Part shown: positions 27,001 through 30,000 of the stretch, in pieces
Position numbering within the stretch: position 1 is the stretch's first letter
Layout: each line of letters opens with the position of its first letter
Assembly: GCA_043799675.1 (NCBI GenBank)
Contig: JAZDNN010000024.1
Location: 32,412-96,411 of the forward strand
Direction of reading: 5' to 3'
Source: Candidatus Aenigmatarchaeota archaeon
Lineage (GTDB): Archaea; Aenigmatarchaeota; Aenigmatarchaeia; Aenigmatarchaeales; JACQIB01
DNA: 64,000 bases
Made by a program: the position numbers

Positions 27001-30000
27001 CCCCGCGCCTGAAAATCCTGTATAGAATTGGATTAAAGCCCTGTTCCCTTAGTTGCCGTTTTATCCTACCAAGCAAGGTTTTATTTTCGGTGCCTATCCG
27101 CATACAACACTGCAAATTTTCCCTGATTTTCTTGACCAGAAGCGACCCTTCCGCATCGAAGTAGCCGGCCAGGAACGACAGGAAAACATTCCGTTCGGAT
27201 TCGACCAACTCTGAAATCAATCGTTTCCTGTTTTCCAGCAAGAGGAAGTCGAAGCTGTTGTCGAGGTCTGCGGATGTCGTCCACATGTAATTTCCAAAAG
27301 TTCTGTTCTTCGCAGGATATGTCCTTACCTTCGCATATCCTTTGAACAGGCTCTCGAAGACATCCAGGAATCCTTCATGAGTCGTGTTGGTTATGGCCCG
27401 AATGGTATGCTTCGATCTTCTGAAGGCTGTCACATCACCCTCCACGAAACCAACCATGTAAGCCTTTTCTTCATCCTTTCCATCAAAACTTTGCCGTTCA
27501 TGTTTCCTGTTTGTCAGCAGGATAGCCTCATCGTTTCCACGCACCCGAAAGCCGTTTTCTTCCAGCACCTTATGCAACGTGCCTTTGGAAGAACCAAATT
27601 TCTTGGCCAGCTTTTTCAACGATATTTTCTCCGTGTCATAAAGTCTCAGAATTTCCGTCACAGGCAGGTGTTTCCTGTGAGACAACGAATGTGCCTGACT
27701 GAGATTCCTTATCGGTATGTCAAGTTTGATGAACCGTTTTCTTACGGCCGACCACGATATATCGTCTCCGAGCTTAACACTCAATATCGCCGCCACTTCT
27801 TTGAACGTCTTACCGGACGAATAGAGACTCTCGGCTTCCTTCAGGAGTTCGCTGTTCAGCTTCATGGTCGTCTATTATATCCCGTTAGGCACTATAAATT
27901 GATATATATTCTCGAGCACACTAATCATGCAGAATACATCCAAAAATATTATTATACCTTCCAGCGAGCGCATTTCTCAACCTGAACGTGTCGCCCTGCG
28001 CCGCATAGGCCATCCAGCCCTCAAGGCTTTTCGCAGCCTGTTCTGCCGAAATCTCACCGGATTCGTACTGCAGTCTGAGTGCCGTCATCCTTTTTTCGAG
28101 CTTCAGCAGGTTCCTCCTTTTTGGAATCCTGTAGTGGTAGAACACCCTGAAGCCGAGCAACGATATCCCCTTATGCAAAGGGTAGACCTGCGATTTTTCC
28201 TCATGCAACTCTAGCTTTAACCGTTGTTTGAGGAACCCGTTTATCCCGCTCCTGAACTGCATCAGCGCGGCCTCAGACCTGTCCAGAATCACGAAGTCAT
28301 CTACATACCGGAGATAGAACCTTGCCTTAAGCACGTGCTTCACGAAATGGTCCAGCTCATTCAGGTAGACGTTCGCGAAGAACTGGCTCGTCTGATTGCC
28401 TATCGGCATCCCCTTCGGCAGGGCAGGGTCGTTGTTCGACAGGATTTTCCGTACCAGCCAGAGCACGCTTTCGTCCCTTATTTTTCTCCGTATGATGCCA
28501 ATCAGGACATCGTGGTCGACGCTCGGGAAATAGTGCCTTATGTCGGCCTTCAGTGCATAGCCGACCACCATGTTGTTGTCCTTCGCGCCGTGCACCAAAC
28601 GGCCGTTCCCGGAAACCTTTCGCTTGAAGCAATCAAACCTGTCCAATGCTGCCAGGCCGCCCTTTCCCTTCCTGTTGGCGTAGCTGTCGTGGATGAACGT
28701 TTTGTCGAAAATCGGTTCGAGCACGTTGCATAACGCATGATGGACAACACGGTCCCTGAAATGCGAGGCATGAATTACCCGTGTCTTGGGGTCGCGGATG
28801 ATGAACCGTTTCAACGGGCGCGGCGAATACGTACGATTTTCAAGCTCAGTTTTCAAATCTGCCAATTCGCCATCAAGATTAGCTTCGAATCTTTTGACAT
28901 ACCATTTCTTCGACTTGCCCTTCCTCGCCTTTCTGAATGCCAGCAAAAGGTTCTCTGGCGAGCAGACCTTTCCGTAAAGGTTGTCAAATGTTTTCAAAAA
29001 TATCCCCTATCGGCGGCCCGTGCTATTGGCGCAGACCCCGTTGTCATTCAGGCTTCCCGCCAAAAGGCAATGAGGAAGTTTCCTGTTCGAGGGCCTGTTC
29101 GCATTTATGCCGGCGGAACGTTTCCTTCCAACCGTTCGCATTGAAGCACCCTTGACGGCCCGAAGGCTCTCGTCCGTGTTCCAATCCGACCTGACGGAAG
29201 GGTTTCGGTAGCCTCTCCACCGACATGACACCGCGGCTTCAATCTTCGGGAACCTACCAACTGAAACCGCTGAATTTAATGGCACAAGCATTCGGACGGC
29301 ATGAAATGCCATCGCACCATCTTGCGCTCTATGGAAAGGCGTATAGCGCGGGCCTTTGCCGGGAGAATGAAATACCCGCCCCCCGATTGGGAAGGAAAGA
29401 ACTCTGTCATGCAAAAATTGAGGGACGAAACGATTTATGCGCCTATTTTGAGGTCTTAACCGCTTTTTTTGCGGCGCAGACCCCGAGGTCATGCCTGAGC
29501 GAGGGCCCGCCCGCATCCGCATCGAAGCACCCCCCGTCGGAGTGCCAAGTCGACCTGACGGAAGCCACTTCAACCGGGATTAAGGCTTCTGTTTCGATTT
29601 CTACTATATCCAGTTTGTTGTCTTTCATCCTGTAAGAAGCCGCTTTCTGTTTGGCCAGCTTTTGGATGACCTCAAGATTATGATTCCAGTAATCGTCCAT
29701 CGTTGCCTTGTATTCCTTGTCGGAATTCATCAGTTCAGCCGACTCCTGTGCCTTGAAGTGTCTTACTCCAAAGTCCAGCTTGAACTCCTCGGGTATTCTC
29801 TGATAGACCAGTTCCTGGATTATCCTGTCCGCATTGGCGATGAACCCTTTGCGTTTATAGTCCCTGAACTTTCCTGCGTCCCCTTTGGCCATCAGGAGCG
29901 CATAGCCTTTCTTTTCAAGGTCCTTTTCCAGCCTCTTTCCGTCAATTATGGCCAATATTTCATCGACCTCTCCCAACCTTTCTTTTACAGAAAAATCATC

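Follow-up and report, generated by a model that had tools for sequence, protein, structure and literature searches.

A covarying long-range pairing encloses the RT-16 RNA and template repeat of archaeal DGRs, with bulge-helix-bulge geometry in one lineage

The RT-16 RNA and template repeat (TR) of a DGR in a 64,000-nt stretch of an Aenigmatarchaeota contig (the window) are enclosed by three helices and two 3-nt bulges, conserved by covariation. Two-part long-range brackets of this kind occur generally among RT-16 DGRs, and in most relatives the form is a bulge-free three-way junction. We propose that the bracket closes the DGR template RNA, and that its bulge-helix-bulge (BHB) is cut by the splicing endonuclease, the RNA circularised by RtcB and the flanks joined. 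Taken as a whole, this reading falls just short of an even chance. Cleavage and circularisation of the bracketed RNA, as predicted from sequence, likewise sit close to the balance point.

The cassette has the hallmarks of a DGR, with the reverse transcriptase (RT; P0001) adjoining a TR/variable repeat (VR) pair that differs at TR adenines (Table 1). When aligned with one-sided gaps, 11 of the 14 TR/VR mismatches at the window's own locus (WIN) fell at A, and those of L075, L017 and L018 fell at A only. Its RT-16 RNA scored above the Rfam gathering threshold. Of the three TR introns, the second is a strict BHB, while introns 1 and 3 have no clean outer helix. In relatives the TR introns are strict BHBs, each as long as the corresponding insertion in the TR relative to the VR (17+31 in L001, 33+31 in L003, 21+18 in L005, 33+36 in L075 and 24+24 in L017). 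A scan of viral contigs returned one distant bacterial-type RT and nothing useful.

Table 1. Positions of the DGR cassette, its bracket and the RtcB gene in window numbering
Feature	Position	Strand	Remarks
RtcB RNA ligase gene	25338..26801	+	PF01139, 524 bits; ~1.1 kb from RT 3' end
DGR reverse transcriptase	27921..28997	-	358 aa, TTG start
BHB outer helix, 3' strand GGGGA	29003..29007	-	purine-rich, Shine-Dalgarno-like; ends 5 nt before RT start codon
3' bulge AUA	29008..29010	-	predicted cut between 29009 and 29008
BHB central helix, 3' strand GCCG	29011..29014	-	sequence and covariation
Inner helix, 3' strand	29015..29026	-	starts 2 nt past end of TR-VR homology
Template repeat (TR)	29028..29200	-	three insertions relative to VR: 29152-29168, 29105-29135, 29047-29079
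RT-16 RNA (RF03019)	29203..29379	-	cmscan 57.2 bits, gathering score 50; sole copy in genome
RT-16 helix P2, 5' strand	29331..29340	-	pairs with 29211-29220 just upstream of TR (cmscan alignment)
Invariant A of conserved CUAYAYGC motif	29342	-	directly after inner helix; invariant in alignments A1 and A2; candidate priming nucleotide
Inner helix, 5' strand	29343..29354	-	12 nt; sequence and duplex folding; candidate primer strand
5' bulge AAA	29355..29357	-	predicted cut between 29356 and 29355
BHB central 4-bp helix, 5' strand CGGC	29358..29361	-	pairs with GCCG 29014-29011
BHB outer helix, 5' strand UCUCC	29362..29366	-	pairs with 29003-29007 (GGGGA)
Upstream pyrimidine tract and G-run	29375..29400	-	possible competitor for bracket 3' strand (folding)
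Variable repeat 1	29473..29565	-	3' end of target ORF 29443-30189
Second variable repeat	30331-30423		

A canonical BHB forms on the minus strand between UCUCC-CGGC-AAA-GGCCCG (29366-29349) and CGGGCC-GCCG-AUA-GGGGA (29020-29003). All parts of the long-range BHB that an initial annotation had placed around the RT-16/TR RNA were recovered at their minus-strand positions. The layout is that of an archaeal hBHBh' endonuclease substrate: two opposed 3-nt bulges, exactly 4 bp between them (CGGC/GCCG) and flanking helices on both sides. Each strand runs helix, 4 nt, 3-nt bulge, helix, with the same polarity as the TR introns found by the scanner and the 23S rRNA intron described below, and the bulges measure 3 nt in all seven strict relatives. 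The inner helix, annotated as 11 bp with one mismatch, was indeed paired at 11 of 12 positions (29354-29343 with 29026-29015), the single exception being C.A at 29348/29021. The canonical BHB cut falls after the second bulge base. Cuts so predicted enclose 29355..29009, which reproduces the proposed release of 347 nt (RT-16 plus TR), or 266 nt after subtraction of introns of 17, 31 and 33 nt. Both lengths are independent of the exact cut position inside the bulge. A kink-turn reading of the 3-nt bulges was rejected by eye, the pairs after each bulge being Watson-Crick and not tandem G.A.

Local unconstrained duplex folding of WIN gave exactly the BHB; anchored local windows were used, RNAduplex across wide windows being noisy. 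With a 45-nt upstream flank the full-length MFE contained the BHB; the outer, central and inner helices had ensemble probabilities of 0.47, 0.65 and 0.99, respectively. With another flank, a rival outer pairing appeared in the MFE. Ensemble probability of the central helix was only about 0.2 in L003, L002 and L066. The upstream pyrimidine/G-run element of WIN could compete for the bracket's 3' strand (-17.1 vs -11.7 kcal/mol). As a conserved rival this pairing was discarded, having beaten random windows only in WIN (3/200) and L003 (10/200), against 18-125/200 at other loci.

The strands of 10 relatives were aligned with MAFFT without structural input. The bracket was paired in 93.3% of cells, compared to 32-44% with the partners slid. 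Both sides had changed in 14 of its 21 pairs: three of five in the outer helix, two of four in the central helix (95% of cells paired) and nine of 12 in the inner helix. This bears out the earlier observation that relatives have the same bracket at the corresponding site and that each of its three helices shows compensatory changes. On four of five measures no shuffle out of 500 attained the observed values; for the fifth, further pair types, 167/500 did so. Gaps were confined to one of 48 bracket columns, versus 226 of 451 columns between the strands. Bulge length held at 3 nt while bulge sequence varied, both in the nine subfamily rows in MAFFT register and in the shifted BHB of L017. In this locus the register has moved by one pair on both strands, with the 4-bp and 3-nt geometry kept.

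A strict BHB was found at the homologous junction in 7 of 16 loci tested (WIN, L001, L061, L003, L005, L066 and L017). The BHB is absent from some loci that are without a P1-apex hairpin (L062, L002, L015, L075, L018 and L067). The central helix contains an A.G in L062 and three of its four pairs in L015, and in L002 the first inner pair is mismatched. The 3' bulge of L075 can pair with UAU, which makes the helix an unbroken 12 bp; imposing the BHB on it costs +14.9 kcal/mol. L018 and L067 have no BHB, in agreement with the initial annotation for L067. The BHB form is limited to a single lineage, the order of DPANN archaea to which the window belongs, with seven strict cases, three near misses and 0/40 others. 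In a tree of BHB-type loci seven fell in one clade, with L005 outside it and L017 unplaced. Because these loci are related, the geometry may go back to a single origin or to very few.

The bracket itself extends well beyond this lineage. In loci without the BHB it was 91.6% paired, with 12 of 18 pairs changed on both sides; 0/500 shuffles reached the observed values on four of five measures, and further pair types were reached by 236/500. Of 38 distinct loci outside the subfamily, 22 had it by a crude criterion. Across the 22 loci examined for this, the start of the inner 3' strand falls between -13 and +9 nt from the end of TR-VR homology, and at +1 or +2 in WIN, L075, L005 and L017. The Rfam RT-16 model differs in ending before the TR, so it is without the bracket's 3' partner, and its 'unpaired' CUACAC stretch is partly inner helix. 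The 5' hairpin P1 of this model and the bracket are alternative pairings. In the window P1 was not recovered, cmscan marking many non-canonical P1 pairs, and in the BHB subfamily the local P1 hairpin was 78% paired, a value reached by 72/500 shuffles. Three-way-junction loci do form P1, and there the P1 base and the long-range bracket both covary.

A pairing of this kind has a counterpart in the Bordetella phage DGR RNA. The report on that RNA describes a template:primer duplex of TR117-129 with Sp47-56, with A56 as the priming nucleotide, and an avd:Sp duplex termed the 'cPRT Stop'; an upstream:downstream duplex is required, one is predicted for 207 of 278 DGRs, and stems with flipped-out bases are reported (10.1101/2023.10.23.563531). 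The covarying long-range pairing around the TR gives the present RNA such an upstream:downstream duplex. Both RNAs join sequences upstream and downstream of the TR by long-range pairing, and in both the duplex adjoins the point where copying should begin. In both, the non-template strand ends in an A, and a second duplex, formed with the segment that immediately precedes the TR, begins 1-2 nt further on. The present system differs in having its structured RNA upstream of the TR, not downstream, which is a circularly permuted order. It also differs in the BHB at the far end of the window's duplex and in that no Avd was identified. Functional equivalences between the bracket and the Bordetella duplexes are drawn by analogy only. 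On this basis A29342 may prime as Sp A56 does, and P2 may resemble the avd:Sp stop duplex.

Because the bracket helix resembles the TR-flanking duplexes of the Bordetella RNA, it has a strong non-splicing explanation. The bracket could be an uncut structural scaffold that holds RT-16 against the TR 3' end for RT priming and stop, with 3-nt bulges that are flipped-out bases for protein or tertiary contacts, for example shielded by bound RT. This is the main rival, and we consider it a serious possibility, if on balance a doubtful one. It fits the family-wide two-part bracket, its covariation where the BHB is absent, the junction of the inner helix with the end of TR-VR homology, and the retention of the bracket without BHB in L075, L018 and L067. 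Cutting cannot be required for DGR function generally, because the majority of RT-16 DGRs, TR-intron loci among them, function with a three-way junction that is not cut. Seven loci with TR introns (L015, L018, L141, L020, L026, L023 and L086) have no strict BHB bracket, so a BHB bracket is not needed where TR introns occur. A scaffold leaves unexplained, however, why 3-nt bulges, 4-bp helix and polarity stay constant despite sequence turnover and register shift. The splicing endonuclease recognises its substrate by structure only, and it would be expected to cut an accessible canonical BHB in an RNA that it must already act on three times.

Genomic and RNA context favours real processing of the bracket. 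The organism encodes both the RtcB ligase and the splicing endonuclease, the latter by a neighbouring pair of genes on contig 10, both of which have PF02778 and PF01974 domains. A scan with a relaxed outer helix located a 642-nt BHB intron (bulges AUA/AUA) in the 23S rRNA of the window, and taking it out restores the Rfam consensus. Strict-scan matches in the 23S insertions were rejected, as they would delete conserved rRNA, and a second 23S insertion gave no convincing BHB. Linkage of RtcB to the DGR was too weak to use as evidence: the two share a contig in G000 and G155 and RtcB stands beside the RT in L062, and it is on other contigs in G109, G066 and G077. A look-up of sequencing runs that contain the locus gave six, all of DNA with shares of 0.12 or less, and no RNA run.

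Reported archaeal long-distance BHB substrates comprise rRNA processing stems and rRNA and tRNA introns that are cut by the endonuclease and circularised by RtcB (PMC7038931, PMC10515664, 10.64898/2026.03.23.713588). The bracket matches those accounts in its opposed 3-nt bulges flanking a 4-bp helix and in strands hundreds of bases apart, and the same window holds the 23S rRNA example. It differs in that the RNA enclosed is a retroelement template, for which cleavage and circle are here only predicted. Permuted tRNA genes reportedly mature via a BHB-made circular intermediate (PMC3978253, PMC3218864), and together with circular pre-rRNAs (PMC7038931, 10.64898/2026.03.23.713588) they are precedents for a permutation model. 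There, as here, permuted parts are bracketed by a BHB, and cutting and ligation would restore the usual connectivity. Permuted tRNAs require another cleavage step that opens the circle, whereas none is proposed for the DGR RNA. The DGR permutation also differs in being drawn from a single structural comparison.

Under the proposed processing, the inner helix would be the counterpart of the template:primer duplex found in bacterial DGR RNAs; its 3' strand starts at the end of TR-VR homology and its 5' strand ends at the invariant A, one base before P2. The archaeal gene order would be a circular permutation of the bacterial order, and in the window's order the outer part of the bracket would be shaped into a canonical BHB. 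The endonuclease, already needed for the three TR introns, would also cut both bulges and free the 347-nt RNA. RtcB would close this RNA into a circle, of 266 nt once the introns are removed, and would also join the flanks into the RT mRNA. In such a circle RT-16, together with its candidate primer strand and priming A, would follow the TR on the 3' side, which is where the spacer is found in bacteria. This most specific form, in which the DGR template is a 347-nt BHB 'intron' of the cassette transcript, the 266-nt circle undoes the gene permutation and the joined flanks are the RT mRNA, is offered tentatively and leans to the negative side.

What is known of DGR biochemistry comes from a single bacterial phage system. 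If the bracket is cut, a retroelement template would be a tRNA-splicing product, probably a circle, and the retroelement would depend on host machinery. Two fields would be linked, the RT-16 RNA would be given a function, and the passage from an intron-bearing TR to intron-free VRs would be explained. Even if the bracket is uncut, RT-16 RNAs are closed by pairing with the sequence that follows the TR, and the archaeal layout is readable as a permuted bacterial one, with A29342 as the candidate priming base and A29027/A29026 as the candidate start of copying. A literature search, with most subscription journals outside its scope, found no paper linking DGRs to BHB motifs and none on the RT-16 motif with a reverse transcriptase, and no circular DGR template among the titles listed on DGRs and circular RNA.

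A main role in translational control is improbable. In that case UCUCC of the outer helix would hide the RT ribosome-binding site GGGGA, and RT synthesis would follow folding of the template RNA. The outer helix covaries, and its 3' strand, a purine-rich sequence (GGGGA, GGAGA, GAAGA, GGAAA or GGUGA), closely precedes the RT start in the subfamily and in most other loci; GGGGA at 29003-29007 may serve in ribosome binding. However, the bracket's 3' strand is >300 nt upstream of the RT start in L152, L154 and L155, so the bracket follows the TR end, not the RT start. Translational control also leaves the inner helix, central helix and bulges unexplained, and it is compatible with either processing or a scaffold and hence no true alternative.

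A BHB score was defined as outer plus four plus inner pairs, giving 20 for WIN. This was reached in 1/1000 dinucleotide shuffles of the 3' window and 1/1000 of the 5' window, and the strict BHBs of the six relatives were matched by 0 of 500-1000 shuffles. This value is stricter than the one annotated earlier (10/300 shuffles), for which another score was used. A score of 18 was reached by none of 40 distinct other RT-16 loci (maximum 16). It is very improbable that the BHB shape arose by chance from a GC-rich stem and has no meaning of its own: the earlier shuffles gave ~3% per genome and the BHB-type loci are related, but these counts, the covarying central helix and bracket columns nearly without indels all weigh against it.

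The diversity-generating retroelement (DGR) lies on the minus strand of the window, in the 0.75 Mb genome (45 contigs, 83% complete) of a DPANN-type archaeon. Alignment of its template repeat (TR) with the variable repeats (VRs) showed mismatches at A in 11 of 14 cases and three insertions of 17, 31 and 33 nt.

Features of the DGR locus and of other elements in the window
Feature	Position	Strand	Remarks
Target ORFs		minus	three in tandem; no Pfam match
VRs	29473-29565 and 30331-30423	minus	
Pyrimidine/G-run element	29375-29400	minus	
Rfam RT-16 RNA (RF03019)	29379-29203	minus	57.2 bits, gathering score 50
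Bracket, 5' strand	29366-29349	minus	bulge AAA
TR	about 29200-29028	minus	with introns
Bracket, 3' strand	29020-29003	minus	bulge AUA
Reverse transcriptase (RT)	28997-27921	minus	
ORF between RtcB and RT	26630-27865	minus	matches to LAGLIDADG_3 and helix-turn-helix
RtcB ligase gene	25338-26801	plus	~1.1 kb from RT 3' end
23S rRNA intron	63888..63247	minus	642 nt; 4-bp helix, AUA/AUA bulges, 15-bp inner helix
Second 23S insertion	roughly 63110-62350		~750 nt

The two strands bracketing RT-16 and the TR form a bulge-helix-bulge (BHB), the substrate shape of the splicing endonuclease. Every element of the motif listed by the initial annotation was found in place, each strand having the order helix, four nucleotides, three-nucleotide bulge, helix. 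Its chance estimate was tested anew: when either search window was dinucleotide-shuffled, 1 of 1000 trials equalled the motif. Local unconstrained duplex folding of the strands returned the exact BHB. Folding at full length gave it as the minimum free energy (MFE) structure with one flank; with another, its outer part was lost to an upstream pyrimidine/G-run element. Ensemble probabilities were 0.47, 0.65 and 0.99 for the outer, central and inner helices. The upstream element, a pyrimidine tract and then 6-10 consecutive G, lies 10-25 nt ahead of the BHB 5' strand and is conserved at the same place in loci L001, L061, L062, L003, L002, L005 and L075. Before it stand a conserved AUGCA-like motif and an A/U-rich box. 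The element may serve as a promoter or as a leader hairpin, and is also able to pair with the bracket's 3' strand.

Three helices and two bulges are likewise conserved among relatives. RT loci were sampled from species-representative genomes (59), metagenomes (80) and the window's phylum, order and class; RT-16 lay upstream of the RT in 17/20, 12/19 and 15/20 loci of three scanned sets, and at none of five bacterial loci scanned. Ten distinct sequences lacking the Rfam hairpin P1 apex, here called the BHB subfamily, were aligned with the window without structural input. The bracket had been reported at the homologous place in relatives with compensatory changes in all three helices, and this was borne out: two-sided changes occurred at 3/5 outer, 2/4 central and 9/12 inner pairs (14/21 together). 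Pairing reached 93.3% of three-helix cells, against 32–44% with slid partners. No shuffle of 500 attained the observed values on four of five measures; on the remaining one (further pair types) 167 shuffles did so. Gaps affected 1 of 48 bracket columns versus 226 of 451 columns between the strands, and the enclosed RNA ranged from 270 to 421 nt.

A strict scan of 16 loci found the BHB at the homologous junction in seven (the window, L001, L061, L003, L005, L066 and L017, the last with each strand shifted by one pair and the geometry kept), equalled by 0-1 of 500-1000 shuffles. Three were near-misses: L062 (A.G in the central helix), L002 (first inner pair mismatched) and L015 (3/4 central pairs). 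The scan gave no BHB in L075, L018, L067, L141, L020 and L144. The 3' AUA of L075 pairs with UAU to make a continuous 12-bp helix, and forcing the BHB there costs +14.9 kcal/mol; in L003, L002 and L066 it lies 1.2-1.8 kcal/mol above the MFE, with a central-helix probability of ~0.2. Among 40 distinct loci outside the subfamily the best score was 16 and none reached 18. Eighteen further class-level loci yielded the anchor in 15 and a comparable motif in none (best 15, 3/4 central pairs). In an RT tree of 36 rows, from which 14 short or broken-ORF rows (L017 included) and three duplicates were left out, the window, L061, L062, L001, L003, L002 and L066 formed one clade (support 98/98). L005 fell outside it, and L075 shared one poorly resolved group with the three-way-junction loci described below. 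All five genome-resolved BHB cases (G000, G109, G066, G155, G077) came from the window's order. The RT frame of L017 (2550-3639) is broken, its longest ORF from the start being 153 aa; even so, its TR differs from the VR at A positions only, and its BHB is intact.

BHB polarity was checked with two internal controls from this organism and its relatives. The same scanner geometry placed strict BHBs at TR insertions, with predicted intron length equal to the TR-versus-VR insertion length: 17 and 31 nt in L001, 33 and 31 in L003, 21 and 18 in L005, 33 and 36 in L075, 24 and 24 in L017, 21 in L015, and 31 for intron 2 of the window. The second control was the 23S rRNA intron, whose excision restores the Rfam LSU consensus and which contains a LAGLIDADG-type ORF (motif identified by eye). 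The same scan found no convincing BHB at the second 23S insertion. Introns within the TR are common across this region of the RT tree, with one, two or three per TR (the window, L001, L003, L002, L005, L075, L017, L015, L018, L141, L020, L026, L023, L086); the third usually lacks an outer helix. None was found in the Nano/Woese-type loci L022, L025, L010, L013 and L046.

A two-part bracket is general in RT-16 loci; the BHB form is not. Elsewhere, the bases directly preceding the conserved CUAYAYGC form one helix with those immediately after the TR, and the RT-16 5' end forms another with the following stretch, usually just ahead of the RT start. A P1-apex hairpin separates the two helices on the 5' strand, whereas the 3' strand runs on unbroken, so that a three-way junction results. 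Across 16 such loci (alignment A2) the bracket was 91.6% paired with two-sided changes at 12/18 pairs; 0/500 shuffles reached the observed values on four of five measures, and 236/500 did for further pair types. The base of Rfam P1 shares the bracket's 5' bases, being 91.0% paired with 3/7 two-sided pairs and covarying mostly via G-U. The two thus represent alternative pairings in these loci. This dual covariation suggests that the RNA has two competing folds and may undergo a co-transcriptional switch. Columns 20-26 with 54-60 and 19-26 with 388-395 of A2 (L020, L022 and others) show the 5' strand covarying with both partners; the Rfam RT-16 model lacks the post-TR 3' partner. In the BHB subfamily the local P1 hairpin was no better than shuffles (78% paired, 72/500). 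The class-level loci L152, L154, L155, L156, L157, L182, L185 and L190 have 300-600 nt between bracket or TR end and RT start.

The initial annotation predicted that cutting would release a 347-nt RNA (266 nt after intron removal), probably circular. Canonical BHBs are cut after the second base of the bulge, and both lengths are independent of the cut position assumed within it. The canonical structure and its conservation favour an excised template RNA; the exceptions among the loci scanned strictly (near-misses in three of 16, none in six) count against it. On balance, cutting of the bracket and circularisation of the product would have just short of an even chance.

Comparison with Bordetella phage bears on what cutting might achieve. 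According to the available part of preprint 10.1101/2023.10.23.563531, the TR 3' end (TR117-129) of that DGR RNA is duplexed with Sp47-56, ending at priming A56; two bases on, Sp59-70 pairs with a segment just upstream of the TR in an essential duplex; and upstream:downstream duplexes are predicted in 207/278 DGRs. In the window the inner-helix 5' strand ends at invariant A29342 and, one base on, P2 (29340-29331) pairs with 29220-29211, ~10 nt upstream of the TR. Set against the Bordetella template:primer duplex, the inner-helix 3' strand begins 2 nt past the end of TR-VR homology. Homology likewise ends 1-2 nt short of this strand in L075, L005 and L017, and in many relatives it extends 7-13 nt into it (L001, L003, L002, L015, L018, L141, L026, L046, L047, L045, L013), so their VR flank has a copy of the strand. 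By analogy, the arrangement in the archaeal locus (primer strand, A, stop strand, RT-16 body, stop strand, TR, template strand) would be a circular permutation of the bacterial one. Cutting and ligation would leave a 7-nt loop capping the inner duplex and restore bacterial connectivity. The same logic applies to permuted tRNA genes (PMC3978253, PMC3218864) and to circular or permuted rRNA (PMC7038931, 10.64898/2026.03.23.713588), as described in the available parts of these sources.

These parallels would also suit the main rival, an uncut bracket acting as priming scaffold, which we consider a realistic though rather doubtful alternative. Against an essential role of cutting stand the exceptions, the large number of DGRs whose junction is uncut, and the TRs that have introns but no BHB bracket around them (L015, L018, L141, L020, L026, L023, L086); the canonical, conserved BHB speaks for excision. 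Hiding of the RT ribosome-binding site, able to coexist with either reading, fits the usual position of the 3' strand but is improbable: in L152, L154 and L155 this strand lies >300 nt ahead of the RT start, so the bracket belongs to the TR end. Chance is a highly improbable source of a shape so seldom equalled by shuffles.

As far as searched, neither the DGR bracket nor its BHB is in print. No link between DGRs and bulge-helix-bulge motifs was found in the literature searched, although supplements of 10.1101/2023.10.23.563531 may list predicted archaeal duplexes; nor was RT-16 found there in combination with reverse transcriptase, motif and Rfam. For DGRs and circular RNA, no relevant work appeared by title among the matches listed. 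The available part of Paul et al. 2015 (PMC4372165) describes IMH/IMH* and a hairpin in nanoarchaeal DGRs, and no such bracket.

Machinery for the predicted excision is encoded by two adjacent, slightly overlapping endonuclease genes (209 and 170 aa; L161 1474-2552, G000 contig 10), each with an N-terminal and a catalytic domain, which suggests a heteromeric enzyme. An enzyme of two subunits would fit the (alpha-beta)2 type, and this would be consistent with the 23S intron and with the relaxed motif of the third TR intron; (alpha-beta)2 and epsilon2 endonucleases are the only types cutting non-canonical motifs, according to the part of PMC5829648 available. The proximity of RtcB to the DGR may be synteny or chance. 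RtcB directly adjoins the RT in L062 (1587-2840); in G155 (contig 91) it precedes the cassette by ~2 kb, and in G109, G066 and G077 it is on other contigs than the DGR. The ORF between RtcB and the RT in the window resembles a homing-endonuclease-like gene that has been inserted, and L062 has no such ORF at the corresponding place.
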